DNA of 64,000 nt, taken from contig NC_057718.1 of assembly GCF_004010195.1 (NCBI RefSeq), forward strand, positions 48,481,859 through 48,545,858, given 5' to 3'. Below, piece by piece: positions 1-61,465 of the stretch (within the stretch, counting starts at the first letter, position 1; every line of letters begins with the position of its first letter). The notes beneath the pieces were generated by a model. That model ran no database searches and had not been told where the DNA came from. It worked only from the letters and a program-made list of their open reading frames with translations. The DNA is from Chiloscyllium plagiosum (lineage: Eukaryota). The translations under genes were made by a program, and so were the position numbers.

Positions 1-215
1 CCACTCACCTATTGTACTCTATGCTACTTTCTCCCCACCCCCACCCTCCTCTCACTTATTTCTCCACCCTTCAGGCTCTCTGCCTGTATTCCTGATGAAG
101 GGCTTTTGCCCGAAACATCGATTTTACTGCTACTCGGATGCTGCCTGAACTGCTGTGCTCTTCCAGCACCACGAATCCAGAATCTGGTTACCAGCATCTG
201 CAGTCATTGTTTTGA
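1..215 (+). mobile_element. Penelope-like element 3' terminal repeat with hammerhead-like motif
   Basis: C-rich tract followed by CTGATGA-AGGGCTTTTGCCC-GAAACATC and the GATGCTGCCTGA..CCAGCATCTGCAG tail. The same tail terminates GIY-YIG-bearing copies elsewhere in the window. Confidence 0.8.
88..123 (+). ncRNA. Minimal type I hammerhead ribozyme-like motif
   Basis: CUGAUGA (92-98), extra A, stem II GGGC/GCCC, GAAA (112-115), then C-AUC and GAUU. Confidence 0.6.
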
Positions 216-679
216 CCACAATATTTATATGACTAATCTGGTTCAGGTTCTGGTCAATGGTAACCATCTCATTGATAGTATGGTATTTAGTGATGTTATT
301 AACCACTTTGTGTCAAGGGGGAATGTTCAAGTTCTTTTTTGTTGGCGATGTTTATTGCCTGGTAATTGTATGGTATGGATATTATTTGCCAGTTATCAGC
401 CCAAACCTGAATGTAATCCAGGTCATGCTACATACGGACATGGACTGCGTCAGTATCTGAGACACTGTGAATGGAGCTGAGTATTGCTAAAATCAATACC
501 TTTGACCTTTTGATGGAGGTTATTGATGAGCTAAATCTCCTTGCTGCCACACTCAGACAAATTTTGACTTGATGTCAATGTTAGTCACTCATGTCTCACT
601 TCTTTACTCCAGTTCTTTTATCAATGTTTGGAACAAAGTTGTCATAAAGTCAGGAGCTGCATAGCCCCAGCGGATCATC

Positions 680-1790
680 TCCTGAGACAGTGCTTTGACT
701 ACGGCAGCCAGCAACACCTAGTATAGCTCAGGAGCCCCAATCGACCAGAGCAAGACAGTGGGCTGTGAAGATACCTGGTTCTGTTTTCATTGGGCCTCCT
801 TTTGGCCAGCTGAGCTGTCTTATTTCTGGTTGCCTCTTCCTATTCCCTCTCAAACAGTCAGTTTTCAGAGGTCACAGCTGTTCAAAAATGTCTCCATAGT
901 ATCAGGACTTTCCACCTTCATATTTGGGTTCATTGGCAGCTTCACCATACAGAAATCTTTGCGTATCTGGCCATCATCCAGCTGATGAACATGAAGGGCT
1001 TATCAATGAGGTTAAGCAAATGCAATTAGCTTGCTCCAGGTCTTCAGACTTTGTCCTGCCAAGGGATGCTGAGGATATGTCTGAGACAGTGAAGATGGAA
1101 ACTGTTCAATCTTTTCTTCTGCTGAGCATAAATCATCCAGATCTCAGGGGATGCATTGATGATACAGGCTTGGCAGCCTCAGAGCTTGATGCTGTCAGTC
1201 AGGTTACTGTTCCATACGTTCTTACACAGCTTGGACATGCCAATTGTGACTGATGTGTGTGTTGATTTCATCATCAAATGACAAGTTATTATGGAGTGTA
1301 TATATTTGAAATTATTAACAACCTCTATCATTGCATTGTTAATGCTGATAGATGGCAGTATTTCAAAATTCTAGACTATGAGATTTCTCTTCTTGATGCT
1401 GATAGTCAAACCAGACTCCTTGCAGGTTCACTTTTTAGTCCTCAGAGGTTCTATCCATTTGGACTGCACTGTTTTTCAGTTTGGAATGTTAATGCAGCAT
1501 CATCAGTGTAAAGCAGTTCTCTGAGACTTGGCACACATTTGTCACAGATCTCAGATGAATAACACTGGACAATTTTCTGTCAGTTTTAGTGTATAAGTTA
1601 GACACCTGCTTAAATGACCTGAAAACACATGACAGCACGAAAGAGAAGAACATGCCAGAATGTGTTGGTGCCAGAACACAGTCAACTTTGAGCAGTTATA
1701 TATTGCACTAAGAAAAAGGATTCTCCATGTGCTCTCACTGCAAGCAGCAATTATTGAACTAGCTTTATTCACACTTCCTCAACATTAACA
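680..1790 (-). mobile_element. Decayed RTE-clade LINE
   Basis: Minus-strand translation near 1047-1145 gives EIWMIYAQQKKRLNSFHLHCLRHILSIPWQDKV, typical of the RTE ORF C-terminal region. Confidence 0.75.
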
Positions 1791-1815
1791 GGATGGAACC
1801 AGAGAGGGCAACTTT

Positions 1816-1816
1816 A

Positions 1817-1847
<31 letters not shown>
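1816..1847. repeat. (CT)n(AT)n compound microsatellite
   Basis: Visible directly in the sequence. Confidence 0.9.
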
Positions 1848-1848
<1 letters not shown>

Positions 1849-1996
1849 TATTTTCCATGCCACAGAAAATAAACATCCTGTATATTAAAATATAAAATTG
1901 TGCAAGCACCCAATTTTCCAGAATAAATGTGATTAAACTAACATTAAAAATGCTTGAAATTTAACAGATGAAATTAGCTAATTGAGATGTATGAAG

Positions 1997-3093
1997 TTAA
2001 AAATCACACAACGCCAGGTTATAGTCCAACAGGTTTAATTGGAAGCACACTAGTTTTCGGAGCGATGCTCCTTCATCAGGTGGTAGTGGAAGGCTCAATC
2101 CTAACACACAGAATTTATGGCAAAAATTTACAGTGTGATGTAACTGAAATTATACATTGAAAAATTGATTGTCAGTTAAGCCTTTCATCTGTTAGAATAC
2201 AGTGATAGTTTCACTTCTTTCACGTGTAAATCACAAAACCTTTTTTTAAAAAAGTTGCATTCTTGGGTTAGCTGTTAACAATGGTGATAGCTAGACAATA
2301 TGTTGAAGGTGTTGGCCCCCTGTGTTCTCTGTCTATGCCATGATGTTTAGATTGATTCTAATCTAAAAAGTGAGATAACAGAGTTTTACATGAATTCATG
2401 CAGTTTTTGAGCTCAGAAGTCTACATGAAGGCATGCAGTTTTTGAGCAAAATACAATGTAACCCTGAAAGTACAAAATCACCCCACAAAATAAATGTGTG
2501 CATGTGGGTCTTTGTGTGTGTGTGTGTCTGTCTGGGTTGGGGGTTGTGAGTGTGAGAAAGTGTATGTGTGTGTGTAGTGAGTGCAGAGTGTCTTAAGTCT
2601 GTGAGGGGGTGCATGTGTGAGTGTGGGAGTGTCTGCGTCTGTAAGAGTGTGTGTGAGTGTCTGTGTGCGCATCTGTGTGTATGTGCGTCCGTGTGTATGT
2701 GTGTATAGGAGTACCTGTGTGTGTGTGAAAGTGTGTGTGTGTAGGAGTATTTGTGTGTGTGTATAGTGCAATGGTGGTCACCTGTAATGTGACATGAACC
2801 CAAGGTCCCGGTTGAGGCCCTGCCTATGGGACCCTATGGTATCTATCACGGTATTCTAACAGATGAAAGGCTTAACAGACAATCAATTTTTCAATGTATA
2901 ATTTCAGTTCCATCACACTGTAAATTTTTGCTATAAATTCTGTGTGTTAGGATTGAGCCCTCCACTACCACCTGATGAAGGAGCGTCGCTCCAAAAGCTA
3001 CTATGCTTCCAATTAAACCTGTTGGACTGTAACCCGGTGTTGTGTGATTTTTAACTTTGTACACCCCAGTCCAACACCAGCATCTCCAAATCA
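1997..3093. mobile_element. Fold-back PLE-derived insertion (second family) with ~200 bp inverted arms and internal GT-rich tract
   Basis: ~1997-2205 is the reverse complement of ~2850-3057. Each arm has a hammerhead-like core. Flanked by TGAG(A/G)TGTATGAAG at 1983-1996 and 3094-3107. Confidence 0.8.
2495..2765. repeat. Degenerate (GT)n-rich tract inside the PLE-derived element
   Basis: Visible directly; it produces the spurious His/Thr-rich ORFs. Confidence 0.9.
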
Positions 3094-3094
3094 T

Positions 3095-3425
3095 GAGGTG
3101 TATGAAGCTGTGAGGGACATTGGCAGGGCAGATAAAGTGAAATGCTTTGCCTTAGTAAAGGGGTCAATAATCAACAGGAACAGTTTTAAGGTAAGGAAAA
3201 GAAGGTTTGGAGTGCAAGTCATTCTGAACTCATTGCCTGAGTGGGGGATAGAGGCAGGAATCTTCGAGACATTTAAGAACTATTTGGATGAGGACTTGAA
3301 ATGCCATTATATCCAAGGCTACGGGCCAAATTCTGGAAAAATAAATTAGAACAGATGGATATTTGATAACTAGGGTAGTCATGATGGGTCAAAAGACCTC
3401 TTTTTGTGCTGTAAAACTCAATGAC
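3095..3425 (+). mobile_element. Old CR1 LINE 3' fragment
   Basis: Degenerate EVYEAVRDIGRADKVKCF...NSLPE..EAG..ETFKNYLD, followed by a CR1-type tail. Confidence 0.7.
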
Positions 3426-5475: not shown

Positions 5476-6113
5476 TACACAAAAGAAGAAAGTTGATTTT
5501 GTGCATTAATGTGACCTGGAAACATTGCTATGTTCTCTATACTTAATTGTTATCTGAATATGATGTTTTCAGAGGCTTCGCACTTTAACGGGAAATGGGG
5601 TTATTTTGATAGTTGACAGCAGTGTGAACTTTTTTTTTGTTGGGGGCTCTTCTTCAGACTTCCTTGGGGGTTACGTTTTGATTTTCAAAGGCTACATTTT
5701 GGTTTTAAGGGCAACTTTTTCACTGCCACTTATGGTGAAGATTGCTTCTGTATTTCTGTTGGTATATAAAGGGTTTTGATTCATATGGAAGCAGAACTAG
5801 AAATTTTATCAATATCCTTAATAGTTATCAACAGTCCACTAATCTGAAAGCAATCAGACAGAAGGAAAACATTCATTTCTTAGGCATAACAGTATTTAAA
5901 TTAGCACAAGTGTACAGGCATAAATTAGCAATAAAAACAATTGCTACAAGTGACTGCACAAAAAGCCTTCATCTGAAATACACATTCAACAGACTGGTAA
6001 CATCATGGCGAATGCATTTCCTTTGAATATGCATAAAGCTGAAAGTTTTAACCAAACAGTTACTGCTCTTTTTACTGTATCTCAAATTTCAATCTCAGAT
6101 TTAAATTTAACAG

Positions 6114-7736: not shown

Positions 7737-8429
7737 CCCCTGCTGCATTAAAGGTCTCATCGCAGAATACAGACAGCTTTTGAACAGAGAAATCGTTTCA
7801 CTCAACCAGAATAATGTGTTTCTTCATGTATATACAAGGCTCCCATGACTTGCTTATTCTAAGACATGCCTCAAGAACCATACATATTTCAATCGCCAGA
7901 CAGCATCTGTAGAGAGAGAAAAACAGCATTAATGTTTCGAGTCTGATGGCGACACTTGTTCAGAACTTTAATTCACTCCCCTACAGGAGCCCCTGAACAT
8001 ATGCAGACTGAACCAAGAGATTCCATTTTCATTTGCAAGGAATTATTTTCCTTAAATAATTCAAGTTTAGTTAGCAGAGTATACTTTGTTGATAGATTTA
8101 CAAAAGTTGTCTCCGTTTTTCGGCTTCCCATCATCCCCTCACATCTTCCAGCCTGCCTTCCTCAGCATAGTTTGCAGCCTCCCTCTCCCCCCCAAAAAGT
8201 CTCCCATTCACACCCCTTGCAGCTTCCCCATCTCCCACCTTGCACCGTCTTTCTTCTCCATAACCACTTGCAGCCTCTTTCTCCCCCACATCTCCTAAAA
8301 GGTGGAATTCCTGACAGACAGCATCCCCATCTCCCACTACCCCGATGGTGAAAGTTTGCTTCTCCTCACATCCCTTGCTTACGGACTTTCCTTTCATTCT
8401 CATCCTGCTCCCCCAATCTTAGGTTGTTC

Positions 8430-9500
8430 CCCTCCAGATTTGCTGCTGATCGGCTTAAAATAAGCTGATCAGTAGCATATTCAGAACTCTGTTACTGCAT
8501 TCCCCAAATATCCTTTGATATCTTAACTGCTAAGAACTATATCTATCCCCTTGAAAATATTCAATATGTTGGTCTCGGCTACTTTCTGCTGAGTGGAGGC
8601 TCAGGTTAAGCACTCACTAGGTGAAGAAATTTCCCTTCAACTTCGTTCTAAATGACTTATCCTTTATCCTTAGACTGTGACCCTTAGTTCTGAACTCCCC
8701 AGTCATCGAAAGATCCTTCCTGTGTTTACACTATCTAGCCCTGTTAGAATTTTATAAGTTTGATAATATACCCCCTCGTTCTCCTAAACGTCAGTGAATA
8801 TAATTTTAACTGGTCCTGTCTTGCTTCGTATCGCAGTCCTGGCATCACAGAAATCCTGAAGAAGGATTACATCCAAAATGTCGACTGTCCACCTCCTGAT
8901 GCTGCCTGGCTTTCTGTGTTCTTTCTGCCTCCTGCATGTCTACTTTGGATTCCAGCATCTGTAGTTTCTTTGTCTCCATCCTAGGAATCAACCTGGTAAA
9001 CCTTTGTTGCACTCTCTCCATCGCCAGCTAATCGCTCCTCACCAAGGACCTGTACAATTGCAGCAAGGCATCACTGTTTCTGTACTCAATCCTCACACGA
9101 TAAAGACAAGCATACCACTTGCCGTCTTCACTGCCTGCTGCATCTGCATGCTTAATTTCATCAATGGTCGTACAATGATATCCAGGTCACATTTGATCTC
9201 CCCTCTTCCCAGTCTATCACCATTCAGATAATAATCTGCATCCTAGTTTGTTATCAAAATGGATGACCTCACATCTGCCATATATTTACCCACTTACTCA
9301 ACTTGTCCAAGTCACACTGAAGCATCTCCAAATCCTGCTCACAACTCACTCTCCCAACCATCTTTGTGTCATCTGCAAATCTGAAGATAGTACATTTTGT
9401 TCCCTCATCTAAGTCATTAATATATGGTGTGAATAGCTGGGGTCCAAATGATACCCCATTATTCACTGGCTACCACTCAGAAAATGACCTATTCATTCTA
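8430..9500 (-). mobile_element. Old CR1 LINE, interrupted by a short PLE tail at 8856-8976
   Basis: GPQLFTPYINDLDEG..FADDTK RT motif in ORF 9269-9466. Confidence 0.85.
8856..8976 (+). mobile_element. Short PLE terminal-repeat insertion starting at the hammerhead core
   Basis: CTGAAGA-AGGATTACATCC-AAAA-TGTC..GATGCTGCCTGGC..CCAGCATCTG. Flanks CATCACAGAAATC / CATCCTAGGAATC look like a decayed TSD. Confidence 0.65.
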
Positions 9501-16380: not shown

Positions 16381-17496
16381 CACTCTGCTTCCTATATTCC
16401 AAAATACCTCAGCTTGGTTGCATTATGATTTGTTGAATGCCCTGCTGCTACATTCTGAATATTCTAGCATTTTTCCAGTGCTTCCCAAACTGTGGGTTAT
16501 GACCCTGGGTGGGGTCTTCAGCTATCAATCAGACTGAATTTTGGGCAAGGTAGAGATTAGTGTTTTGATGTGCATACTGTGCAACTAAAAGTAAGTTGTG
16601 TTTCATTCAAATTTCTGATCCCCACACTCCCACAATGACATTACCCATGGAATGACATAATAATGCAACAAAGATATATGCACAGTTACATATGTTCATG
16701 TCAATATTTTGTGTGAATGGATATGCCCTTGCAGCTGATGGTGTGTCTGAAAGATTGCTATACTTGACTTCCTTGATGTGAGAAGTCACAGGGGAGAGAA
16801 GAGCTGTCAGTAGGTTGTTGCAATGTATCTTATAGATAGTACAAATATTGTTTTGTGTGACCTGTTTGTTGCACTGTGTGATCCCTTTAAGATCATTGCC
16901 TGGCTCCTCATGAGTTGTCTTAAACACAGCTTGCTTGCCTTACATCCTGGTGTTACACGGCTGCACATTATTTCAGCTGAAAGGGAATGTTGGAAGATAC
17001 ATACGACAGCTGCAGCACACTGGTGGCAGTAGGGCTTGATATTGAACCTGTGACAGTGCTGCCAACTCATCCAGTTGTCTGAACTAGATGGTTTGATCTT
17101 CTCTGGGCCTTGTTGCAAATGCACCCATTTAGTCAAATGATGAATATTTCATAATCTACCTGTCTTGAGATTTGTCAGTGATGGGAGACTTTTTAAAGCT
17201 GTCTGAATAAATTGGATGAATGTAGAGTTGAAACATCAGATAAAGTTATTGTGCTCAGCAGCCTGGAGTATGAACAGTGAGAAATAAAGCATTTTAGGCA
17301 CCTTTATGAAAGTTCTCTGGTCATGGCCACAAAAAGTATACAATTCCCTGTACAGTACTTTCCAAAAAATGAGCCTTAACCTCTGCCTTGGAACAGTTGT
17401 AACATTACCAGTGTGAACTTTTCTATTTCCTAAATCAGTCATCATCATTGTTTCAAAATGCAATTGCCAGTTAATGTTGAGTTATGAGTATTTTTG

Positions 17497-18210
17497 AGGA
17501 GAAAGTGAGGACTGCAGATGCTGGAGATCAGAGCTGAAAATGTGTTGCTGGAAAAGCCCAGCAGGTCAGGCAGCATCCAAGGAACAGGAGAATCGCGTTT
17601 CCGGCATAAGCCCTTCTTCAGGAATGAGGAAAGTGTGTCCAGCAGGCTAAGATAAAAGATAGGGAGGAGGGACTTGGGGGAGGGGCGTTGGAAATGCGAT
17701 AGGTGGAAGGAGGTCAAGGTGAGGGTGATAGGCCGGAGTGGGGTGGGGGCGGAGAGGTCGGGAAGAAGATTGCAGGTTAGGAAGGCGGTGCNNNNNNNNN
17801 NNNNNNNNNNNNNNNNNNNNNNNNNNNNNNNNNNNNNNNNNNNNNNNNNNNNNNNNNNNNNNNNNNNNNNNNNNNNNNNNNNNNNNNNNNNNNNNNNNNN
17901 NNNNNNNNNNNNNNNNNNNNNNNNNNNNNNNNNNNNNNNNNNNNNNNNNNNNNNNNAGGGGGGAGGTGTGGGCGCAAGTTTTGCATTTCTTGCGGTTGCA
18001 GGGGAAGGTGCCGGGAGTGGAGGTTGGGTTGGTGGGGGGTGTGGACCTGACGAGGGAGTCACGGAGGGAGTGGTCTTTTCGGAACGCTGATAGGGGAGGG
18101 GAGGGAAATATATCCCTGGTGGTGGGGTCCGTGTGGAGGTGGCGGAAATGACGGCGAATGATACCGCAATTTCCCCCCAGACGTGGTCAACGATGCCCTC
18201 CACCCCACCC
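17497..18210 (-). mobile_element. Penelope-like element 3' part with short inverted 5' piece, spanning an N gap
   Basis: Minus translation FRHLHTDPTTRDIFPSPPLSAFRKDHSLRDSLVRS..PCNRKKCKTCAH. Terminal repeat with hammerhead-like motif at 17591-17625. Confidence 0.85.
17792..17956. other. Assembly gap
   Basis: Run of N. Confidence 1.
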
Positions 18211-22570: not shown

Positions 22571-24309
22571 TATTAAGTTTGATGATACCTATTACAACAA
22601 CATATAACTTGTAAAGAGTATTAATATGTGAATAATAATATAAACAGTGGAAGTTCACATCCATTCTGTGATTTCTGTATGAGTGAGCTTTATTAGGGTT
22701 TCCTGGGGAGGAGCAGGAAATGACTGACAGGAAATTCAGGATTTTGACATTCACCTGAGCAAGTGCAGGTGTGGCTGTCAGTTTCACAGAATATTGATGG
22801 CAAATACTGATGGATCTGCTGGCATGACATCGGAAAGTCTGGATCCACGATTCCTGCTGAATAGCAGATCGGAGTGAAGCTATTCAGATTTCACTACCCT
22901 GATCAAAGGGCATTGAAAGTAACTGGATCATCCCTCCTGTTCTTTGAAAGTTAACTCAGCACAAACCTGAGAATGGAATCTGAGTCAATGCAGTTTCATT
23001 ATTTAGTGTATTAACTTGCTTGTTTTTCTAACTTAAAATTATTGCTAATTATTGGGCATGCGACAAAAGCGAGATGACTTTAGGATATTTTCATTAGTTG
23101 GTAAAACCTGGTAAATTTCAATCTTGATAGGGACAGTATTTCAGTAAGGACTCAGATTGAGTCCCTGATGTTATTAAGCACTCCTCCACAGGCTGACTCC
23201 GCTGAGTGTTTACACTGCAGTGACAATCTCCTCATAAATTAAACTAAAAATACACTGTTACTTGACCCTGGTGATGGAAGATTCCTTGCTAATTCACTTA
23301 GTTGCTCAACGTGAGCACTGCTGATTTCTTATTTATTGCAAGATATGGTTTGGAATATCAGAATTCTTTTGTCCCTGACTTTTGTGTTTATTAAAACAAA
23401 CACAGTGCCTGAATAGACACTGATCCGAAAGGAGCCAGAGAATGAGATAAAATATAAAGATATATACAAGATGACACATGTGTGACCTGGAAATGTTAAC
23501 TTCTTTTTGTTGTCTTTTGACTTGGTGCAATGTTTGAAAGGTAGTGAAGGGATGTTTTATGCTTTATAACCCACAAATCCATTATTATTAATGTGTTTTA
23601 AAGAAAGGGGATGCCATGCACAGTCTATGTAGACCAGACCTTATGTCAAAAGTATTTTAAAAAATGTACACACTGGCCCATTAATGGAGTGCAGCTTTCC
23701 GACAAGGTTTCTTTCAGTTAATTATTTTTCAAGAATGTCTGGACCTGTGGAGAAATGATAACTGTCTCTCCTTATTCCTTTCTTCAGATGGTTTTCATTA
23801 AAACCAAACATATTTAGAAAATATCAGTTTCTAACTTGATGTCGTTGAGGTATTTGGGTAAATTTTTCTCCTTTGTTTTGTTGTTATGTCACATTTTCAC
23901 CATCGTTGGCTTGATGCCTGTGGTGAAAGCGTTCCCATGTTCTACTAGGTCACTACCAATATCCCTGCAGCCAACAGGAGGTAGCAGATGCTCCCCAGAT
24001 AATCTCTCATTTCAGACTCAACTCCTTCTCAAGAAAAGTCTATGGCTCTGATTCTGTTTTTTCATTATAACGACAGTAACATATTGTTTAAAAGCTCTAC
24101 CTCTGGAAAGTGCATGTTATACTTCCATCAAGTTTGACTAACTTCACCATCAGAGTGCCAGTGTTCTGCCATAGGATTTCACTCCATCCATTATACCTCT
24201 ATCACAGCTGCTTTCTATCAGTTCAGTCTCCTGTATCAGTGGCCTTTTTAGTAACGGAAACAATATTGAAAAGCACAAACTCAGTTGAAGGCCAGGTTAG
24301 GAGGCTTTT

Positions 24310-25890
24310 GTGTCAAAGGTAAAGTATCTCAACATCAGGTGTCACAGATCTATTCATCTATTCTCACTTTGAATAACTTCTCCTTTAACGCATTTCATTT
24401 TCTTCAGATTAAAGACATGGCCAGGGATACCTGCATGGGTGCCAATTATGTCTGTCTCTTTGTGGCATACATGGAACATCCCTTTCACATGACTTTCTAC
24501 AGTACATTGGTGATATCATTGGTTCCGTTTCCCTCTCTTCTGGAATTGGAGAAGCTTATCAATTTTGATTCCAGTTTCCACCTTGCTGTCACCTACACGT
24601 GGCTCATTTCTGACTCCTTCCTTCCCTTCCACGACATCTCTGTTTCCAATTCCAGGAATAGACTGGCCACCAATATCCATTATAAACTCACGGACTCCCA
24701 CAGTTATATTGACTATACATTTTCACACCCTACTTCCTGTAAAGACTGTATACCATTATCTCAGTTCCTCAGGTTCCTTTGCATCTGTTCTGATGATGCC
24801 AACTTTGAAAGGGGGCCTCCAAAAATTCCACCTTCTTCCTCAACTGAGGAATCCCCAGCACTGGAGTTGACAAGGCCCTCAGCCATGTCCAACACATCTC
24901 CCACACTTCAGCCCTCAGCTCCCTCTCTTCCCTCCCACAACAGCGATATGGTTTCCCTCATTCTCACTTACCATCCTACCAGCATCTACATCCAAAGGAT
25001 CATTAGCCACCATTTCCACCACTTCCAATGAGATACCACCACCAGACGCACATTCCCCTCTCTTCACTTGACAGCCTTCCACCTGGGTTCACTCCTACTC
25101 CACCCTCAATGTCTAACCACACCCCTATGGCACCATCCTATGCAATCACAGAAGGTGCAACGTCTGGCTGTTTATTTTTTCCCTCCTCACTATTCAAAGT
25201 CCCAGATATACCTTCATGTGAACCAGCATTTTATCTGCATTTTACTCAATTTAATCTATTGTATTCACTGCTCACGATGTGGTCTGCTCTACAATGGAGA
25301 ATCAAAGTGTAGACTGGGTGACTGCTTTGCAGAACACCAACATTCTGTCTGAAAAAATGACCCTGAGCTTCCAGTTGCCTTCCAGTTTAACATCACCTTG
25401 TTCCCTGGCCAACATCTCTATCTCAGGCTTGCTGCAGTGTTCCAGTGAAGCTCAGCGCAGATTGGAAGAACAGCACCTCATTTTCACTTGGGAACTCTGC
25501 AGCCTTCTGGACTCAATGTCAAGTTCCACAGTTTAGGGCCTGAGCACCTATGCCCTTACTCCAACCTCCACATACAAGGCCTTATCATCATATGGGTTGC
25601 TACCTCAAACAATCCATTGCCAGTCACTAAAGATCCCCAATAGCGGCTACTGTTTCTCCCAGGCTGACCTTTACGCATTCCTTTGTCTCCCCATCTGTTA
25701 TCTCTCTCTTGGCTCCATCTCCACCTATCATTTATTCCCCATCTGACCCCCTCCATCCTTAGTACATACACCAACCTTTTCCTTGCTTCAATCAGTTCTG
25801 AAAAAGGGTCACTGCATCCAAAATATTAACTCTGATTTCTCTCTGCAAATGCTGCCAGAGCTGCTGAGTTTTTCCAGCAATTTCTGTCTT
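24310..25890 (+). mobile_element. Decayed Penelope-like element: RT, GIY-YIG endonuclease and terminal repeat
   Basis: LNNFSFN..FLQIKDMARDTCMGANYVCLFV; PFHDISV..HYKLTDSHSYIDY..HP; NLIYCIHCSRCGLLYNGE..RLGD.FAEH. Degenerate hammerhead core near 25798. Confidence 0.92.
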
Positions 25891-26992
25891 TGTCACAGAT
25901 ATATTCATGACTTACCTCTAACCATACACAACTGTTGCATCCTCTCATAAAAAAAAAGATCTATTTAGCCTGTCCCACATCTCATGATGGCTTGAACACC
26001 ATGACCTGCTCCTCAGATGCTGTCTGACCTGCAGTGCTTTTCCAGCACCACACTCTCGACCCAGATACTTGCTACCCCTGATCACAATTTCTCCATTTCC
26101 AGCAAGTCACAGCCATGTAATATGTTAAGCAGAGCAAAGATAAAGCAGAAAATATAACACTTCATTAACTCCAGTCCAGGTGATGATAACGATCCAATGT
26201 TATCAACTGCATTTTATGGAGCTGCCCTCAGCCAAATTGACTGGGCAAGGCAACACTGATCCTTCTCTGGCACCAATTGTGCTTCTCTTTCTTGCTCCAT
26301 GTTCAAAACTGGGAAAGAGTGAAAAAGAATCGGGAAATGCACAGAAGAGCAGAACTGGGGTAGTACAGACACCTCAGGGGGTTGTCACATTGGAGGAGTT
26401 TATAAAGGTAGGAATGGCCATGGGTAAGATATAAAAAAGGATGATCATTTTAAAATCAAGGTCTTGCAAGACTAGGAGCCAGTGTCGGTCAGTTGCCAGG
26501 GGATGGATGGATGAATGGGATATGACACAGGTTAGATTTATGTCCAGGGATTTACTCTTTGTGTGCAGTATCAGCAGCAGCTGCTTCAGTCTGAGCAGCC
26601 GTACTTCTGCAGGACTCAGGAAAGCTGTAAAAGGAGGAAATATAGAAACATAAACAGAAATGTGGACAAATGAGCTAAAATAACTATTCTCAGGGCATAT
26701 TGGATAAGTAAATCACTTTAAAACCATTTTTACTTTTACCAGCTGGGTAGTAATCCTGCATTGTTGATTTTATGCCATTTTGCAAGACACTTGATATCAT
26801 CCCGTTGATTTCACCAGATTACTTCCCAGATAATGAAAGTGAAAATTACAACTCCTCCCCTCTCCAATGAATCAAAATTTCATCATTTCAAATTCAGATT
26901 ATCTTTGGAACAGCCAGGGCTGCAGACGCACCCCATCCATTATTAACAGGAGTTGCCCTTTCACTGTTCTACCCTAATGTAATCAAGCTTAC

Positions 26993-30124: not shown

Positions 30125-31990
30125 AAATTAAAATGCTACATATGAACACACAAAGCATTTGTAATAAGGTAGATTAATTAATGGCACAAATAGAGATAGT
30201 GTTTGGTCTGAAATGTGGTTGCGTGGTGACTAATGTAGGAAATGAAATATTCAAGGTATTTGACTTTAGAAAAGATAGGCAAAAAGTGAAAGGAGGTGTG
30301 GTAATCCTAATCATACAGAACAGGAAAAAGGCAGTTGCAAGAAAGGATCCTAACCCAGAAAGTCAAGATATAAAATTTATATGGGTGGACCTAAGAAATA
30401 ATGAGTGGCAGAAAACACTGGTCTGAGTAAAGTATAGGTTCCCTACATTGGTCATACTATAGACAGAGTATAGAGTATTGGGAACTGAGAGGAGTATGTT
30501 ACAAGGATAATGCAGTAGTCATAGGGACTTTAGTCTTCAATATGACGTGCCAATTTTGCCAAGATGTTTTGTCTTGGAGGTCTTGCTCATTGTATGCATT
30601 CAAGGCAGCTTTTTTTATAACAATATGTCAGATGCCAACTAAGGACCACATTATTTTAGATCTAGTATTGTAAATAATTGTTTTTTTCACCTAATTAACA
30701 TTGACAGTTTATATTTCATGCCGCATCTCCATGTCAACCTTGTCCAACTGATCAACACTCTTTCATCTATCACCTCCATCGCCAATCCTTCACCACCCGA
30801 TGCCTGGAGGAAGAATGCCTTATCTTCCGCTTTGGAACTCTTCAATCCCAGGGCATCAATATGGACTTCACCAGTTTCCTCATTTCCCCTTCCCCCACCT
30901 TACTCCAGTTCCAACCTTCCAGCTCAGAACCGTCCTCATGACCTGTCCCAACTGTCAGTCTTCCTTCCCACCTATCCGTTCCACCCTCCTCTCCGACCTA
31001 TCACCTTTATCCCCACCTCGATTCACCTATTGCACTCTCAGCTACCTTCTCCCCAGCCTCACTCCCCATCCCCGCCCCCTCCCATTTATCTCTCCACTCC
31101 CTGATGAAGGGCTCCGACCTGAAACGTCGATTTTCCTGCTCCTCGGATGCTGCCTGACCTGCTGTGCTTTTCCAGCAACACATTCTCAACTCTGATCTCC
31201 AGCATCTGCAGACCTTACTGTCTCCTACTCTTGGTTTTGCCTTTCCAGGTTTGGTTTTATGTGTCAGTTTTGATGAGAAAAAGTTTGATTTTACAACTCT
31301 TTTTAGCAATGTTTAGGACCTAGTAAAGCATAATGAGGCAGGATTAATCAGTAATCTGGTAGTAAAGGATTATCTGCTGAAGAGTGATAATATTGATGGA
31401 ATTTCAAATTGGCTTTGAGATTGATCTGATTAAATGTCAAACCTGAAATCTTAATTTTAAGCTGAGCCAAGTACAGTTGTACAGGAGAGTTGGCTAGGCT
31501 AGATTAGGAAGTTAGGTTAAAGGTTTTAGCAGTAGATAAGCAAGTGGCAAATTTTTAAATACTAATTTGTAATTCTCAATGAATATATATTTCTTTTTGG
31601 GAAAACAAAGAGCCTGGTAAAGTGATAGACCATGGTTACCTGGAGATGTTACAGCTAGTATCAAATTAAAAGAAGAGAATCCAGTGTTGTTAAAACACCT
31701 TAGAGGTTTGAAAAATCACCAAATGATGACCAAGAAAATAATAATGAAGGAGAAATTGAGAATAAAAACAGATTGTTAGAACTGCAAATTTGTTAAAGGA
31801 AAAAGTCTATAAAACGTAATCCTCTTTAGAGGCAGACAAAAGGAGAAATTAAAATGGGAATTACCGAAACAGCAAAGAGGTTACATAGATATTTTAGCAA
31901 TAAACGAGTCAAAGAACAAGTTGGAACCAATGGTCTATGAGAATGAAAAACAAAAAGTAGTAAGAAAATGTACTGGAGAAATTAACGAGC
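30125..31990 (+). mobile_element. Old CR1 endonuclease region interrupted by a PLE
   Basis: HMNTQSICNKVD*LMAQIE; FRKDRQKVKGGV; IWVDLRN (APE-type endonuclease motifs). Confidence 0.7.
30720..31228 (+). mobile_element. PLE 3' end and terminal repeat
   Basis: CTGGAGGAAGAA..CTTCCGC endonuclease end, C-rich tract, hammerhead-like motif at 31101-31131, tail. Confidence 0.85.
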
Positions 31991-34440: not shown

Positions 34441-34479
34441 TCTGGTTGAAAATAGGTGCAAAACAGCTGATTTGTAAAA

Positions 34480-35065
34480 CATCTATGTTCTGTCCTCAAA
34501 AATAACGCTAAACTTCCTGTTGCTTTCTACTTCAACACACCACTGTATTTCCTGACCAACATTTCTGTCCCAGACTTGCTGAAGTGCATCACCAAGACTC
34601 AGGTCAAGCTGGAAGAATAGCATCTCATTTTCCATTTGGGGACCCTGCAGCTTACAGGACTCAATACCAAGTTCAATAGCACCTTCTTCCATGCCGTTTA
34701 CCCACCCTCACACCCCAGGCCCTTTCATGACATTGACTGTTTTCAGCACAGCAAATCCATTTTCATCAAATTCTGGTCCCCATTATCAGCTTCACTGTCT
34801 CCCCAGTTTACTAATATCCATCCCTATGTCAGCCTAGCTTTCTTTCTGTCCCTCTGGGTTCCTTCACCAGCCATCACTTACTCCTTTAAACCCCCATCCC
34901 ATGCCCTCCCTCTAGTATATTTGCCATCTTTTCCTAGCTACTCGCAGTTCTGAAGAATGGTCACTGGGCCTCAAACATTAACTCGGCTTTCTCTCCATGT
35001 ATGCTTCTGGGCCTGCCAAATTTCGCCAGCAATTTCTGTTTTTCTTTCAGATTTCCAGAATCCCT
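34480..35065 (+). mobile_element. Old PLE 3' end and terminal repeat
   Basis: AAGCTGGAAGAATAGCATCTCATTTTC endonuclease end; degenerate core CTGAAGA..AAACATTAACT near 34950-34983. Confidence 0.7.
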
Positions 35066-37604: not shown

Positions 37605-38290
37605 AAAATGTCAACTTGTCCCCCCTCACCACCGTCCAAGGCCCCAAAGGATCTTTTCACATCTGACAGAGATCTTTCTGCACATCCACCCATATCATCT
37701 ACTATATTCGTTGCTCTCAATGGGTCTCCTCTACATGTGGGAGACAGAATGCTAACTCATGGACCATTTGAGGGAACTACTCTGGGACACATGCAGCAAA
37801 CAATCCCAACGCCCTGTGACCGACCACTTCAACTACCCCTCCCATGCCCCCAAGGACATGCAAGTCTTGGGCCTTCTCCACTGCCAAATCCAAGCCGCTG
37901 GATGACTGGAGGAAGAACTCCTTACCTCTGCCTTGGTATCCTTTAATCACATGGCATCAACATTGACTTCACCATTTTCCAAATCTCTCCCTCCACCTCA
38001 TCCCAGCTCCAACCTTCCAACTCTGCACTGCCCTCTTGACCTATCCTACCCATCCATCTTGCTTCCCACCTATCTGCTCCACCCTCCCCATTGACCTAGC
38101 ACAATCACTTCCCACCTGCTTCTATCTATTGCCTTCCCAGCTACCTTGCCCCAGCCCCACCCCACCCTCCTATTTATCTCTCAGCATCCTTACCCCCACA
38201 ATCCTGATGAAGGGCTTATACCCAAAACATCGATTCTTATGTTCCTCGGATGCTACCTGACCTGCTGTGCTTTTCCAGTGCCACACTTTT
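37605..38290 (+). mobile_element. PLE endonuclease end and terminal repeat nested in the LINE
   Basis: Decayed IYYIRCSQ..LYM region, CTGGAGGAAGAA, hammerhead-like motif at 38200-38235. Confidence 0.85.
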
Positions 38291-41080: not shown

Positions 41081-42757
41081 TACTATATATTTATAGAAGG
41101 AGTAGCAATACTGAGAAGATTAGTTCTTTAGAAATTGGAAATAACCTCTATATATCCAAGATTGCTGACCTCAATGAGAAACCAACAGGGGAAGTTCCAT
41201 ACTTTTGGTATTCAGCTACTCGTGGTTTATCACTGCCTATAATCATTTAAATACCACAAAAAGCAAGTAAGTTTTAAAATGTCTCAATACATTTCAGTTA
41301 GTTTTCTATTCTCAGTTATTCATCTTGAAATTTGGCAAGTTGGGAGTAAGCATTTGGACAGTACTGCTTAAGCCAAAGTGAAATGGAAACATGTGAAATA
41401 ACTTACTTAGCAGCACCACTGATGCAGAAACTAGAACTCCAATTTTCCTAAGATGATGAAGAGGGCATTATAGTGTTCTGTAGGACAGAAAGTTAATCTG
41501 GGCTAAACTTTTCTCTAATTTGGATGTTTCAAAAGTACAGGAAAGACTTTTCCAGAAGTTTGACCATAGCTGGTGGAGAGCAGTCAAAGATCAAGTTATT
41601 ATGAATCAAAAAATTAAGTAATTGAGTGTAATGATCAATTTGTAACATGTGGGTACAATAATTCTTTTCTGTTAAGGTGCAAGATGCATTGCACAGGAGA
41701 GGTAGCAAAGAACAGTTGGTCTTATTTGGAACTGGAGGCCATACTTTGGTAAAAGCACAGATACCAGTTGCCAGGAAGCCTGGTGGTTTGAGCATCTTTT
41801 CGATATGGCACTTTTATCAGCACCATCAACAAGAGATATGTGCCATGCAGCTACAATTAGGGAATGATTATTCGCAAATACTTTCTTCTCTCCAAAGTAG
41901 TTGGGGCAGAAGTGATCAATTCCTTCATTAAATAAAATTAACTAAGTAAATATCTATAAAACCAAGTTAGAAATCTGCAAAAAGAACACTACAAATACTT
42001 AACAGGTCAGGTATCATCTGTGGAGAGAAAACATAGTTAACATTTCAGTAATTATATCTTCCTTCAGAACTCGCATCATGGCAAGAAATTTAAATGTGTA
42101 CATTGAGTCATATATTCATAGAGATGTACAGCATGGAAACAGACCCTTCGGTCCAACCCGTCCATGCCGACCAGATATCCCAACCCAATCAAGTCCCACC
42201 TGCCAGCATCCGGCCCATATCCCTCCAAACACTTCCTATTCATATACCCATCCAAATGCCTTTTAAATGGTGCAATTGTACTAACCTCCACCACTTCCTC
42301 TGGCAACACATTCCATACACGTACCACCCTCTGAGTGAAAAAGTTGCATCTTAGTTCTCTTTTATATCTTTCCCCTCTCACCCTAAACCTTATGCCCTCT
42401 AGTTCTGGACTCCCCAACCCCAAGAAAAATACTTTATCTATTTATCCTATCCATGCCCCTCATGATTTTGTAAACCTCTATAAGGTCACACCTCAGCCTC
42501 CAAATCTCCAGAGAAAACAGCCCTAGCCTGTTCAGCCTCTCCCTATAGCTGAAATCTACCAACCCTGGCAACATCCTTGGAAATCTTTTCTGAACCCTTT
42601 CAAGTTTCACAACATCTTTCCGATAGGAAGGAGACCAGAATTGCACAGAATAGTCTAAAAGTGGCCTAACCAATGTCCTGCACAGCTGCAACATGACCTC
42701 CCAACTGCTGTACTCAATACTCTGACCAATAAAGGAAAGCATATCAAATGCCTTCTT

Positions 42758-45062
42758 AAGAGAAGAGTACTAAACTGGGCCAAGGCCAATTATATCAAAA
42801 TTAGGTAGGAGCTGGGAAATGTGGTTTGGACAGAGCTATTTGAAGGGAAGTCTACATTTGAGATGTGGGAGGCTTTCAAAGACAGGTTAACGGTAGTGCA
42901 GGATAGGCATGTCCCATTGAAGGCAAAGGATAGGAAAGGCAAGATTCGTGAACCGTGGATGACAGGAGAAATTGTACGACTAGCCAAGAGGAAAAGGGAA
43001 GCGTACATAAGTTGAAACTTTATTGCTGGAACAGCACAGCAGGTCAGGCAGCATCCAGGGAACAGGAGATCTGCAGACCTCACTTTCTCCTCGAAGCATA
43101 CATAAGGTCTAGGCAGCTAAGAACAGAATGGGCCCTGGAGGAATATTGGAAGAGTAGGACAAGTCTTAAGCAAGGAATCAAGTGGGCTAAGAGGGGTCAT
43201 GAAATAGCTTTAGCAAGCAGAATTAAGGAAAATCACAAAGCATTTTATTCTTATATAAGAAGCAAGCGGGTAACTAGAGAAAGGATTGGTCCACTAAAAG
43301 ATAATGAAGGAAGGCTGTGTGCCGAACCTGGGAGAATGGGTGAGATACTGAATGATTACTTTGTATCAGTGTTCACTGAGGTGAGGCACATGATAAATGT
43401 TGAGATTAGACTTAGATGTTTGTTTAGTCTGGATCACATTGACATAGGTAGGGAAGATGTGTTGGGTTAGAGGTTATTAAGGTGGACAAATCCCCAGACA
43501 AATCCCCAGGACTGGATGGGATTTATCCCAGGTTGCTGAGGGAGGCAAGAGAGAAAATAGCTGGGGCCCTGACAGATTTCTTTGTGGCATCCTTAAATAC
43601 AGGTGAGGTGTCGGAGGACTGGAAGGTTGCTCATATTGTCCCCCTGTACAAGAAGCGTAGTAGGGATATTCCGGGTAACTACAGACCAGTGAGCCTGACG
43701 TCGGTGGTGGGGAAGTTGCTGGAGAGGGTACTGAGAGATATGATCTATTTATATTTAGAAAAGAATGAGCTTATCAGTGATAGGCAACTTGGTTTTGTAC
43801 AGGGGAGATCGTACTTTACCAACTTAATAGAGTTCTTTGAGGAAGTGACCAAGTTGTGAGATGAAGAAAGGGCTGTTGATGTCATATACATGGACTTTAG
43901 TAAGGCATTTGATAAGGTTCCCCATTGTAGATTAATGGAGAAATTGAAGTCACATGGTGTGCAGGGTGCTCTAGCTAGGTGGATAAAGAACTGATTGAGC
44001 AATAGGAGACAGAGAGTAGCAGTTGAAGGGGATTTCTCGAAATGGAGAAAGGTGGCCAGTGGTGTTCCACAGGGGTCAGTGTTGGGGCCACTGCTGTTTG
44101 TAATATACATAAATGATCTAGAAGAGGGCACTGTTGATATGATCAGCAAGTTTGCAGATGACACAAAGATTGGTGGAGTAGCAGAAAGCACAAAGGACTG
44201 TCAGAGAATACAGGAGGATATAGATAGACTCGAGAGTTGGGCAGAAAAGTGGCAGATGGCTTTCAATCCAGACAAATGTAAGGTGATGCATTTTGGCAAG
44301 ACTAATTCTAGAGCAACTTATACAATGAACGGAAGAGCTTTGGAAAAAGTTGATGGGCAGTGAGATCTGGGAGTGCAGGTCCATTGTACCCTGAAGGTTG
44401 CTGCACAGGTGGATAGAGTGGTCAAATATAGTATTCTTGCCTTCATTGGATGGGGCATTGAGTATAAGAGCTGGCAAGTCATGTTAAGATTATACAAGAC
44501 ATTGGTTCGGCTGCATTTAGAATACTGTGTACAGTTCTGGTCACCACATTACCAAAAGGATGAGGACACTTTGGAGAGAGTGCAGAGAAGGTTTATGAGG
44601 ATGTTCCCTCGTATGGAAGGTACTAGCAAATGAAGAGAGGTTGAGTAGGTTAGGTTTATTTTCATTAGAAAAAAGGAGATTGAGAGGGGAACTGAGAGGT
44701 TTACAAAATCATGAAGGGTATAGACAGGGTGGATAGAGACAAGCTTTTTCCCAGGGTGAAGGATTCAATAACGAGAGGTCATGCTTTCAAGGAGAGAGGT
44801 GGAAAGTTTAAGGGGAATACAAGTGGCAAGTACTTCACACAGAGGGTGGTGGGCATTTGGAACGCGTTGCCAGCAGAGGTGCTAGAGGCAGGCATGGTAG
44901 ATTCATTTAAGATGTGTCTGGACAGATGCAAGAGTAGATGGGGAGCAGAGGGATACAAATGCTTAGGAATTGACCGACAGGTTTAGACAGTACATTTGGA
45001 TCTGCTCAGGCTTTAAGGGCCGAAGGGCCTGTTCCTGGGCTGTAAATTTTCTTTGTTCTTTG
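42758..45062 (+). mobile_element. CR1 LINE of a different subfamily (2.3 kb, nested)
   Basis: [40 protein letters not shown]; (TTCTTTG)n tail. Confidence 0.97.
43012..43092. mobile_element. 81 bp collapsed PLE fold-back insertion
   Basis: TSD GAAGC(G/A)TACATAAG at 42998-43011 and 43093-43106. Confidence 0.85.
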
Positions 45063-50435: not shown

Positions 50436-50620
50436 TAAGAGTAAGTAACCATGTTAAGAAGAAATGATGGAAGAAATAATATTGTTTGGCAGCAGTGCTA
50501 ACCACTGTGCCACCGTGCCGCCCACGGTGCTTCTGTGCTGTATGTCTCTATGACACTGTGACTGTATAAGAGTAAGTAACCATGTTAAGAAGAAATGATG
50601 GAAGAAATAATATTGTTTGG
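50400..50620 (+). repeat. Perfect 90 bp direct repeat flanking a 41 bp inverted SINE head
   Basis: 50400-50489 is identical to 50531-50620. Confidence 0.95.
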
Positions 50621-54050: not shown

Positions 54051-54239
54051 GGATTATTTGCACATCATATTCTTTGCATCTATGTTTAGGATTTATCCAA
54101 TTTTGTCCCTGATATCTGTGAAAATATATTGGTAATTAATGTGAATGTTGTTTTTGAGGGTGCGTGTGTATCAATGTTGTTTTAATTGTATATCAGCATG
54201 TCTTATTTTATAGCTGTTGTGAGCCTTATTTTATCAATG

Positions 54240-54429
54240 GAGCAGGAGAATCGACGTTTCGGGCATGAGCCCTTCTTCAGGAAGGGCTTCAACCCTCTTC
54301 CTGAAGAAGGGTTCATGCCCGAAACTTCGATTCTCCTGCTTCTTGGATGCTGCCTGACCTGCTGCGCTTTTCCAGCAACACATTTTTAGCTCTGATCTCC
54401 AGCATCTGCAGTCCTCACTTTCTCCTCGA
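54240..54429. mobile_element. Fold-back PLE mini-element with two divergent hammerhead-like motifs
   Basis: Perfect 14 bp TSD TTATTTTATCAATG at 54226-54239 and 54430-54443. Cores at 54249-54283 (-) and 54298-54333 (+). Confidence 0.9.
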
Positions 54430-58790: not shown

Positions 58791-59035
58791 TTATGGCTTA
58801 GGACACTTTTATGTAGGAAAAGGAATTTGTATATACATTGCACCTCTTTTTCTAAAGAAAAAGGCTAATGAAGACATTGAAGTTCTTCTGCATCCCCAAG
58901 GCAATGTCCTCACATATCAAAACCTACCTGTCTGCGCTGAGAATTAAGATTGACAATTAACTGCTCTTGCTGTGTCTCTGCCCAATGATGGCCTAACCAA
59001 TCAATATCCTCTTTTCATTTTGTATAAAATTATAT

Positions 59036-59134
59036 CCCGACTGCCTGCCCCTCTTCCGTGGTTACGTTAGAGCCTGGGTGTCCTTGGAGAAGGAGCACGC
59101 GGTGTCCACCAACACCCTGGAGTTGTTCAGGGAC
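59036..59134 (+). mobile_element. Short internal fragment resembling a Tx1-type LINE ORF2 C-terminus
   Basis: GC-rich open frame PDCLPLFRGYVRAWVSLEKEHAVSTNTLELFRD in AT-rich context. Confidence 0.55.
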
Positions 59135-60041
59135 TATCTGATATTGCCCATTTAAAAGTGCTCTCTATCACTCCTTCACCCATATTGAAGGAGACATTTT
59201 GCAAGGAAGGTTTTTTGGAAGATAATGAGATCCCAACAAACAAAGCCAGACATGATTCTTTTAGGGTGGTTTTCACACCACTTAAGAACATGGATCAGGA
59301 TTGCATAAATCTCTGATACCATAGCATTTCAACATAGTCAAAAATAGGCATACTGATATTAAAAACGAATTTTAAATATTTTGTGTTATATGGTGTTGAC
59401 TTTACTATTTGGACTCTGATATACTTTTATCTTGTGAAACCCATGTTGCATGGGTCACACAAACTGGCAAAAATATAACACTGTCTGTATAAATTTATTG
59501 ATGAAACCATATTGTTCTCCAGTTTGAAGTGAACTTGTCTTCTATGTAAATTATACAGCAGTTGAACTATCAAGACCTATATTATAAGCAATCAATTATT
59601 TATACTGTTGTACTATCATTTAATTATTATCAGTATTGACCAATACCAAATGCTATAAAACTAAACATTGAATGGCACAGGGTTCAAGCTGACACCCTTG
59701 TGGAGATGAACTATGGAACTGGAAGCTTCATAATCCACAGTGTGATAAATAACATAATGGAGGCAATTCTGAACAGACAGCTGCTCACTCCACAGCAGAA
59801 AAATAAGGATCCAATGGATCAATAGCATATGTGTTTATTAATTACAAAGTGCAATAAGTACTAGTAATGCAATACACATATTCACAGATTAAAAATATGA
59901 TGTGAGTCCAAAAGGCTAACAGTTAATAAAATCAAATATACAATCAATCCATGAATTGTTTGCAAGGAGCAAATAGATAATTGAATGTTGCAGCCATTAC
60001 ATTGGAGGTTACAAGTTGCATTGATGTTGATAGTTGAACAG

Positions 60042-60185
60042 GGTAAAAACAAGGACTGCAGATGCTCGAAACCAGATTCTAGATTAGAGTGGTACTGGAA
60101 AAGCACAGCAGTTCAGACAGCAACCGAGGAGCAGGAAAATCAATGTTTCGGGCAAAAGCCCTTCATCAGGAAGAGAGGCAAATAG
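60042..60185 (-). mobile_element. PLE terminal-repeat fragment
   Basis: Reverse complement of the 1-215 type repeat; hammerhead-like core at 60138-60172. Confidence 0.8.
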
Positions 60186-60769
60186 TTGAACAGTCCATTT
60201 TATTATCCTTAATTTTTCCAGATTGCTTGAGATTCTGTAGTTCTGATTTCTTTTGCCCATAACTAAGCATTCAGGTAAGGGGAGAGACCTTTTGTTGTCC
60301 CATTTCCTTTTGTCTCATTTGTTAAAAACTAAGACAGAGGCAAGAGTAGACATTAGACCACTGGAAAATGAGGCTGGAAACATAGTAATGATGAACAAAG
60401 AAATGGCGGAGGAACTGAAGGCTTTGCATCAGTTTTCAGAGTGAAAGACAGCAGCAGTATACCAGAACTTCAAGAAAGCCAAAGGGGCAGATCTGAGTGT
60501 TGTGACCATCACCAACTAGAAGGTGTTGGAGAAGCTGAAGGATCTGAAGGTGGATAAATCACCTGGATCAGATTGATGACACCCCAGAGTTCTGTAGGAG
60601 ACAGTTGAGGAGATTGGAGGCAATCTTTCAGTAATCACTGGAGTCAGGAAGAGGCCCAGACGACTAGAAAATGGCCGATGTAGCATCTCTGTTTAAGAAG
60701 AAGGGAGACAGAGGACAGAAAATTACAGGCCAGTTAGCTTGACCTCAGTTGTTGATAAGATTTTAGAGT

Positions 60770-61002
60770 TGAGAGTGTAATGCTGGAAAAGCACAGCAGG
60801 TCAGGCAGCATCCGAGGAGCAGGAGAATCGACATTTCGGGCATAAGCCTTTCATCAGGCCTTCATCAGCCCTTCCTGATGAAGGGCTTATGCCCGAAATG
60901 TCAATTCTCCTGCTCCTCGGATGCTGCCTGACCTGTTGTGCTTTTCCAGCACTACACTCTCGACTCTGATCTCCAGCATCTGCAGTTCTCATTTTCTCCT
61001 AG
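60770..61002. mobile_element. Fold-back PLE mini-element with two hammerhead-like motifs
   Basis: TSD TAAGATTTTAGAGT at 60756-60769 and 61003-61016; inverted arms. Confidence 0.9.
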
Positions 61003-61258
61003 TAAGATTTTAGAGTACATTATTAAGGATGATATTGCAGAGTGCTTGGAAGTGCACGCTAAAATACAGCTAAGTCAGCACAGCTTCATCAAGGGGAGGT
61101 CATGCCTGATAAATCCATTACAATTCTTTCAGGAAGTAATGAGCAACTTATTAAGACTGAGAGCCAGTGGATATGGTCGATACGGATTTCCAGAAGGCCT
61201 TTGACAAAGTAACATACAGGAGGCTGCTAAATAAGATAAGACCCCATGGTGTTAGGGG

Positions 61259-61465
61259 AGAAAGTGAGGTCTGCAGATGCTGGAGATCAGAGCTGGAAAT
61301 GTGTTGCTGGAAAAGCGCAGCAGGTCAGGCAGCATCCAGGGAACAGGAGAATCGACGTTTCGGGCATAAGCCCTTCCTGAAGAAGGGCTTATGCCCGAAA
61401 CGTTGATTCTCCTGTTCCCTGGATGCTGCCTGACCTGCTGCGCTTTTCCAGCAACACATTTCCAG
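61259..61465. mobile_element. Fold-back PLE mini-element
   Basis: Perfect 16 bp TSD CCCATGGTGTTAGGGG at 61243-61258 and 61466-61481. Near-perfect hairpin; plus-strand core CTGAAGA at 61377. Confidence 0.92.

Follow-up and report, generated by a model that had tools for sequence, protein, structure and literature searches.

Minimal hammerhead motifs of Penelope-like elements in Chiloscyllium plagiosum and short insertions likely copied from uncut RNA

A 64,000-nucleotide stretch of the Chiloscyllium plagiosum genome (NC_057718.1, positions 48,481,859 to 48,545,858; hereafter the window) carries minimal type I hammerheads with covarying stems from several Penelope-like element (PLE) families, as the preliminary description had proposed, with reverse transcriptase (RT) and GIY-YIG coding sequence upstream. 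Most copies are stubs flanked by target-site duplications, often placed head-to-head, whose 5' ends lie at the front edge of the hammerhead and not at its predicted cut. Because they begin at this edge, many of the window copies, stubs of 90-130 nt, were likely reverse-transcribed from uncut RNA. We put the probability of the whole account, in which hammerheads end at least four Neptune-type PLE families, the window copies are mutated, the stubs come from uncut RNA and the mechanism set out below operates, at about 0.7.

All thirteen motifs of the preliminary description were recovered from the window sequence at the same coordinates and strands, ten belonging to family A, two to family B and one to family C, with degenerate copies of family D in addition; the four degenerate sites (near 7930 and 42035 on the minus strand, 25798 and 34950 on the plus strand) were also recognisable. 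When both boxes, a stem II of at least 4 bp, U16.1-H17 and at least three of four stem I pairs were required together, the window gave two matches against 0.025 per dinucleotide shuffle (one match in 40 shuffles), and 1.136 Mb from elsewhere in the genome gave 72. The boxes (CUGANGA, GAAA) and stem II alone gave 110 matches in 1.199 Mb and none in either reversed or complemented controls. U16.1, although outside this descriptor, was present in 104 of the 110, and an unpaired extra nucleotide separating position 9 from 10.1 in 103, being A in 95; the 10.1-11.1 pair was G-C in 77 and G-U in 22. The palindrome at 15.1-16.1, which has no loop 3 and was likewise not required, read ACGU in 49/110, AGCU in 17/110 and the CpG-decay forms ACAU or AUGU in 30/110, so that the earlier claims on the extra nucleotide and the palindrome hold across these matches. 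Covariation between families was also borne out, stem I keeping 2.14 of 3 Watson-Crick pairs within its own family versus 0.82 of 3 across families, a comparison resting on few, related families; pair 1 is C-G, U-A or A-U and pair 2 is U-A, A-U or C-G in families A, B, D and E. The AAUC/GAUU form of stem I previously cited does occur in the window, only in the copy at 38200, but is not the usual family A form, which is AUUC/GAUU with U-U at pair 3 (47/66), while subfamily A2, to which the motif of locus L041 belongs, has a perfect AUUC/GAAU (8/10). An Rfam scan returned no hammerhead match up to E=10, only chance hairpin matches.

As described, these motifs are of an already known kind, the PLE minimal hammerheads (min-HHRs; Cervera and De la Pena 2014, PMC4209133). 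They share with them the type I arrangement with no helix III beyond the palindromic 15.2-16.2, the extra nucleotide between 9 and 10.1, the G10.1-C11.1 pair, the presence of several consensus families per genome, mostly as single dispersed copies, and some opposite-strand pairs 100-700 bp apart. They differ in the U-U of the family A stem I, and in number, a rough genome-wide estimate of 3x10^5 motifs standing against about 4,000 in coelacanth and 9,000 in Xenopus, with different descriptors in the two studies. Cartilaginous fish are not among the species named in the sections of that paper on which we draw, nor do these sections report how 5' ends are distributed.

The parent elements could be traced through family A ORFs of 749-893 aa, of which 3/3 scanned carried RVT_1 with GIY-YIG at the C terminus; in these three long ORFs RVT_1 scored above cut-off and GIY-YIG just under it (E 2.5-3.5e-4). 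A DKG motif and a C-X4-CxxC linker precede the GIY-YIG, and the hammerhead motif lies 160-190 nt past the ORF stop. Loci L038 and L041 have a CNRRRCNTC-type linker (CX2-5CxxC, between RT and endonuclease), which is common to Neptune and Nematis (PMC8557442), and from vertebrate distribution (bioRxiv 10.64898/2026.07.22.740005) we infer Neptune rather than Nematis. The motifs of families B and D have remnants of a PLE endonuclease or RT upstream of them. Pfam, applied to 21 ORFs and 8 read-through frames of the window, detected no PLE domain because the remnants are too broken; a long natural ORF used as tblastn query did reveal PLE remnants there. No partial-tandem repeat-ORF-repeat copy was found in 12 long loci or 30 N-terminal loci, many of them gapped in the assembly, and the position of the repeat before the ORF is therefore assumed from other PLEs; one candidate for this arrangement, L042, was rejected as its upstream motif belongs to a separate duplication-flanked stub. 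Like the endonuclease-bearing PLEs of Neptune/Nematis type (PMC8557442, PMC3846280), the elements combine RT, a Cys linker and GIY-YIG at the C terminus with 5' truncation, a head-to-head inverted arm, an optional 30-40-nt tail on one end and target-site duplications of 9-16 nt. That whole insertions often consist of just two short arms, with ends clustered at the front edge, is a point on which the parts of these two papers used here are silent.

The thirteen motifs of the window represent fewer insertion events, since 2048/2968, 54249/54298 and 60826/60871 are the arms of single inverted insertions. The first is a family B head-to-head insertion (1979..3095) with a 13-nt target-site duplication containing one mismatch, a minus-arm motif at 2048-2083 (AACU) and a tailed plus arm (2841-3095) with its motif at 2968-3003. 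Family A accounts for the others, at 54233..54428 (motifs 54249 minus and 54298 plus, with a target-site duplication; the arms meet at the hammerhead front edge and only the plus arm has a tail) and 60765..61003 (motifs 60826 minus and 60871 plus, tail on one arm, 14-nt target-site duplication by eye). A further family A head-to-head insertion at 61257..61468 has a 16-nt target-site duplication, a tail on one arm and a plus-strand motif at 61374 with an intact core and a predicted cut after 61404; its partial minus arm was absent from the earlier list. A simple family A stub on the minus strand (60046..60173) starts at -32 and has a 12-nt target-site duplication, and a plus-strand family C stub (8852..8978) has its 5' end at the hammerhead front edge. 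Family A 3' fragments lie on the plus strand at 2..219 (core 92-119, with the cut predicted after 119 and a palindrome that has decayed to ACAU), 30747..31227 (endonuclease remnant; core 31101-31128 with the palindrome intact and stems I and II damaged) and 37619..38289 (GIY-YIG remnant, hammerhead 38200-38235), and on the minus strand at 17494..18162, where an endonuclease-region remnant (17956-18162) and an assembly gap (17792-17956) accompany a dead hammerhead (17591-17625) with U16.1 missing and C11.1 changed. Family D is represented by a plus-strand fragment (24270..25900) with a broken RT-thumb and GIY-YIG coding remnant at 24360-25535 and a degenerate hammerhead near 25798 at its end, a plus-strand 3' fragment (34471..35062) with an endonuclease remnant and a degenerate hammerhead near 34950, a degenerate minus-strand stub (41993..42071) and a family D-like degenerate hammerhead stub, also on the minus strand (7899..7967). 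Two insertions are without a hammerhead: a plus-strand family A stub (26005..26068) starting about 6 nt past the predicted cut, and an inverted family A2 mini-insertion (43008..43095) with a 13-nt target-site duplication, whose long arm starts at most 2 nt from the predicted cut.

None of the thirteen copies combines core, palindrome and both stems intact. G12A is found in the 2968, 8852 and 38200 copies, and perfect cores only at 54249 (minus) and 61374 (plus), where inversion junctions cost each half of stem I. The copy at 54249-54283, singled out earlier as intact, indeed retains core and palindrome but only 2/4 pairs of stem I: its 5' strand has been lost to the inversion junction, and the strand now there pairs with the core GAAGGG in the predicted fold. 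The window copies are mutated and likely inactive.

To locate where copies begin, 214 family A matches in 1.2 Mb were reduced to 196 arms by dropping 18 at locus edges or N. Of these, 83 begin at -36 to -25 relative to the predicted cut, that is at the ribozyme front edge, and 11 at -3 to +3; as front-edge starts far outnumber cut starts, most inserted RNA would have been uncut. That stubs start at the cut, an idea prompted by the insertions at 43008 and 26005, was rejected on the same count. Among 26 simple family A insertions with a duplication, 16 begin at -36 to -25 and one at the cut, while 26 of 45 head-to-head units have a duplication (chance 5%) and 36 of the 45 a tail on one arm only. 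In family B 29/65 begin at -50 to -13, a broad peak, and two at the cut; in family D the figures are 32/63 at -36 to -25 and one at the cut, with the proviso that alignment ends may pile up at the conserved block beside a variable pyrimidine tract, an effect controlled by duplications and inversions in family A and not in family D. A BLAST-based version gave spurious peaks at -7, -8 and -11, which were due to differences in loop II and disappeared with a profile. Neither the stub structure nor the front-edge 5' ends had been noticed in the preliminary description. An extra G, as expected from a cap, was seen in 5/13 short versus 2/30 long copies (p=0.02), a weak difference, some of these G's stemming from re-copied motif letters. 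No RNA 5' end was seen: single-cell poly(A) reads showed no pile-up of starts or ends at a family A2 end in a sample of 2,097 reads, about 2% of one run, the library being of a type that captures 5' ends badly.

The same elements could give this pile of 5' ends if RT stopped there on a longer RNA, owing to structure or a bound protein at the upstream pyrimidine-tract border, helped by local self-complementarity through which cDNA ends fold back or anneal, with no RNA 5' end at that place. Junctions often contain short re-copied or inverted motif pieces with overlaps of up to 23 nt, the peak has a width of some 12 nt, and palindromes at inverted junctions have been interpreted as self-priming (PMC3846280). 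However, the peak has the same position among simple, non-inverted stubs that carry duplications, the stop would fall at the 5' side of the structure, the one that RT reaches last, and family B shows an excess around the motif although its upstream sequence is AT-rich and not pyrimidine-rich. We regard an RT stop as a rather unlikely competitor.

Under the preferred reading, copying from uncut RNA, the element's protein would nick both DNA strands 9-16 nt apart, and reverse transcription would begin internally at one or other of two points, some 60 and 97 nt past the predicted cut, pass the cut site and halt 25-36 nt beyond it, most likely because the template has its 5' end there, at a transcription start or processing site. 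Priming of one strand would yield a simple stub, and priming of both would yield two head-to-head arms, one of them tailed; most insertions would need no cleavage. This resembles Poseidon PAc of Anolis (Frangieh et al. 2024, PMC11167929), for which the portions of the report used here describe a tail delimited by two internal RT start sites, nicks in both strands, unprocessed RNA as main substrate and hammerhead mutants without effect on insertion. That element, the sole vertebrate PLE tested, required its protein for hammerhead cleavage, which we count as a further likeness. It belongs to another clade, and no reads starting or ending at the cut were reported, in contrast to the U6 chimeras joined at the cut here.

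These chimeras came from 46 U6 loci (48 matches), of which 43 were readable at the U6 3' end and six were joined to family A. Four of the six joints fall exactly at the first base past the predicted cut (L240, L257, L267, L274) and two inside the ORF (L252, L256). Against the 11/196 background this gives a binomial 1.4e-4, for a small count from one family with 48 candidates scored, three further places with a match across the U6 joint being left out because the query that gave them favours exact joints. The position of the joints suggests, indirectly, that the ribozyme sometimes cuts in cells. RtcB links the U6 cyclic phosphate to 5'-OH RNA (PMC6789731), and the 5'-OH product may occasionally be ligated to U6 and then retrotransposed. 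As in the chimeric U6/LINE-1 pseudogenes described by Moldovan et al. (2019, PMC6789731), a full U6 3' U-tract is followed by a 5'-truncated retroelement and the whole is retrotransposed, whereas here the partner is Penelope-like and the joint is fixed at the predicted cut in 4/6 and not variable. No earlier description of U6-Penelope chimeras, or of the 5'-end clustering, was found in searches of the literature, supplements, subscription papers and Repbase notes apart.

The ribozyme probably cleaves only the smaller part of the transcripts, as a dimer, with help from the element's protein, or both. The view of the preliminary description in its strong form, that the dispersed motifs are working ribozymes whose cleavage, as dimers joined by the palindrome, shapes the copies, takes up the published idea of dimer-only cleavage (PMC4209133; dimer cleavage is also attributed to Lunse et al. 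2017, as cited in PMC6765202 and PMC7761336). Conservation of palindrome and stems across families, the low activity of a schistosome motif as a dimer (PMC4209133) and the U6 joints speak for it. The damage to all thirteen window copies and the scarcity of starts near the cut do not, and same-strand neighbours are mostly kilobases apart in separate insertions (1/22 distances below 500 nt), while head-to-head pairs would form long hairpins; we consider it improbable. Two-strand folding of six natural copies, with a minimum other than the palindrome-joined dimer, was uninformative on dimer cleavage. It is equally doubtful that the stubs form a short non-autonomous element in its own right, of SINE or retrozyme kind, copied from stub loci and not from full Penelope elements, as might be read from their very high copy number, their uniform 90-130-nt size and the proposed origin of animal retrozymes from PLE repeats (bioRxiv 10.64898/2026.07.22.740005), since the stubs share subfamily sequences with long ORF-bearing copies, grade without a break into longer copies with 5' truncation, vary in 5' junction from copy to copy, and in the window are single or head-to-head, with none of the tandem hammerhead units typical of non-LTR retrozymes.

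A tentative extension, less likely than not, is that transcription starts at the hammerhead front edge, and that the ribozyme would therefore work as a self-decapping switch, removing a capped germ-line leader of about 32 nt. Run-off stubs, in their hundreds of thousands, would then stem from uncut RNA, whereas RNA that had been cut would have left its trace in U6 chimeras joined exactly at the cut, and these chimeras would, if this is true, constitute in vivo evidence of cleavage by a metazoan minimal hammerhead.

All 13 hammerhead motifs listed in the preliminary description were present at their positions in the window, and by flanking sequence they fell into three families of Penelope-like elements, namely A (ten copies), B (the 2048/2968 pair, whose arms are 93% alike across 221 nt) and C (8852), while the degenerate sites formed a fourth, D. 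A strict descriptor was passed by two of the 13 (92+ and 2051-), had a single match across 40 shuffled versions of the window, and gave 72 matches in a sample of 1.136 Mb drawn from 21 other blocks of the same genome (one 200-kb block adjoining the window, and 20 blocks of 50 kb placed at round coordinates, each on a different large contig). A loose descriptor, consisting of the two boxes and stem II only, gave 110 matches in 1.199 Mb (sample and window combined), compared with zero in reversed and in complemented control sequence. Scaled to 3.56 Gb, this count corresponds to roughly 3x10^5 motifs, the sampling being not strictly random. Features that were not part of the loose descriptor recurred nonetheless: U16.1 (104/110), the extra nucleotide (103/110), G10.1 paired to C or U (99/110) and the palindrome, whether intact or CpG-decayed (96/110). 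The proposed covariation of stem I was borne out, its pairs changing jointly between families A, B, D and E. In family E, a fifth family seen outside the window only, stem II is long and bulged and stem I is CA/UG (loci L079:7972-8004, L093:352-385, L126:7370-7403 and L139:8778-8811); a GIY-YIG-like ORF near the L139 hammerhead may be of Poseidon type.

None of the 13 window copies is a complete ribozyme. Three carry G12A (2968, 8852 and 38200), the 17591 copy lacks U16.1, and in six (88, 2048, 54298, 60138, 60826 and 60871) the palindrome is broken but G12 is kept. ACGU is kept at 31097, 54249 and 61374, but the stems of 31097 are damaged despite it. The 54249 copy, thought to look intact, keeps just two of four stem I pairs, as does 61374, because the inversion junction replaced the 5' strand in both.

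The parents of family A carry an RT (RVT_1) and GIY-YIG ORF, remnants of which tblastn detected (six matches) on the upstream side of four window copies plus two of family D. Family B runs on into a different GIY-YIG domain (L174), and the upstream part of family C is related and pyrimidine-rich. No complete repeat-ORF-repeat copy was found among 12 long loci and 30 ORF N-terminal loci, many with assembly gaps. Short tandem re-copied segments near the 5' ends of long family-A copies (L038:4700-5560, L041 and L222) suggest repeated template jumps. Elsewhere in the window, many fragments of another RT-bearing repeat (6100-7000, 13300-14700, 27600-29200, 35150-36430, 42100-45300 and 50000-52700; RVT_1 at 28016-28615 and 35417-36130) are probably CR1-type LINEs, and an isolated short hairpin at 19021-19097, outside the hammerhead families, scored weakly against miRNA models. 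PMC4209133 contains every feature of the original finding, and PMC3846280 and PMC8557442 describe inverted arms, tails and duplications. In the freely available papers that were searched, no prior description of 5'-end clustering or U6 joints was found.

Five short family-A insertions in the window are flanked by 12-16-nt duplications, and four of the five are head-to-head. Insertion ends were mapped on the sample with a profile from 15 long natural copies; 273 matches extended beyond the predicted cut, 214 of them family A, and 196 were analysed after excluding 18 at edges or gaps. Relative to the cut, 27 began beyond the model, 13 at -130 to -61, 18 at -60 to -37, 83 at the front edge (-36 to -25), 23 at -24 to -4, 11 at -3 to +3 and 21 further downstream, and on these bins the stopping rate per base is ~4.9% for the front edge, ~0.9% for the cut and ~0.5% for the upstream stretch. 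Among duplication-flanked insertions (chance duplication rate 2-5%), the front edge was the start of 16/26 simple ones, two of the 26 being long copies with an internal 'duplication', and of 25/52 inverted arms. In family D, 32/63 ends, counted without a duplication check, lay at the same place, and the family-B peak was broader than those of A and D. Exactly one arm bore the 35-nt tail in 36/45 head-to-head units, which would arise from twin priming. Two near-identical inverted family-A stubs with common flanks (L162:5099 and 5658) are a local duplication that contributed two arms to the count, and two similar tail-only inverted family-B stubs ~600 nt apart in the window (39618-39705 and 40220-40321) probably also lie within one. 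In another clade, the RT starts internally at two sites and both strands are nicked (PMC11167929).

The front-edge pile would reflect an RNA 5' end at that position. The Drosophila Penelope repeat has an internal promoter, at a different position (PMC2377424), and an extra cap-like G in 5/13 short versus 2/30 long copies lends weak support for a cap. The main rival reading is an RT stop helped by self-complementarity. No pile of read starts or ends was seen at a family-A2 end in 2,097 single-cell poly(A) reads (~2% of one run). Front-edge copies contain the cut site and were therefore copied from a template that was not cut at this point. A minority of transcripts may be cleaved; in the clade studied in PMC11167929, cleavage is dispensable and protein-assisted.

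A U6 search gave 48 matches at 46 loci, 43 of them readable. For many U6 copies (L245, L246, L250, L255, L258-L262 and others) the partner at the joint is the same short, abundant repeat, which is likely a SINE. At six loci U6 is joined to family A, twice inside the ORF and four times exactly at the first base past the predicted GUC cut (L240, L257, L267 and L274; G000 C10, C7, C31 and C10), with no letters in common that would explain the joint in the common GUC form; two of these four, L257 and L267, are also inverted insertions. At least four of six joints at the cut, against a background of 11/196 ends near it, gives p ~1.4e-4. U6 cyclic phosphate is joined to 5'-OH RNA by RtcB (PMC6789731). 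As the hammerhead product end is a 5'-OH, these joints, at four loci of one family, are indirect evidence that the hammerhead cuts in the germ line.
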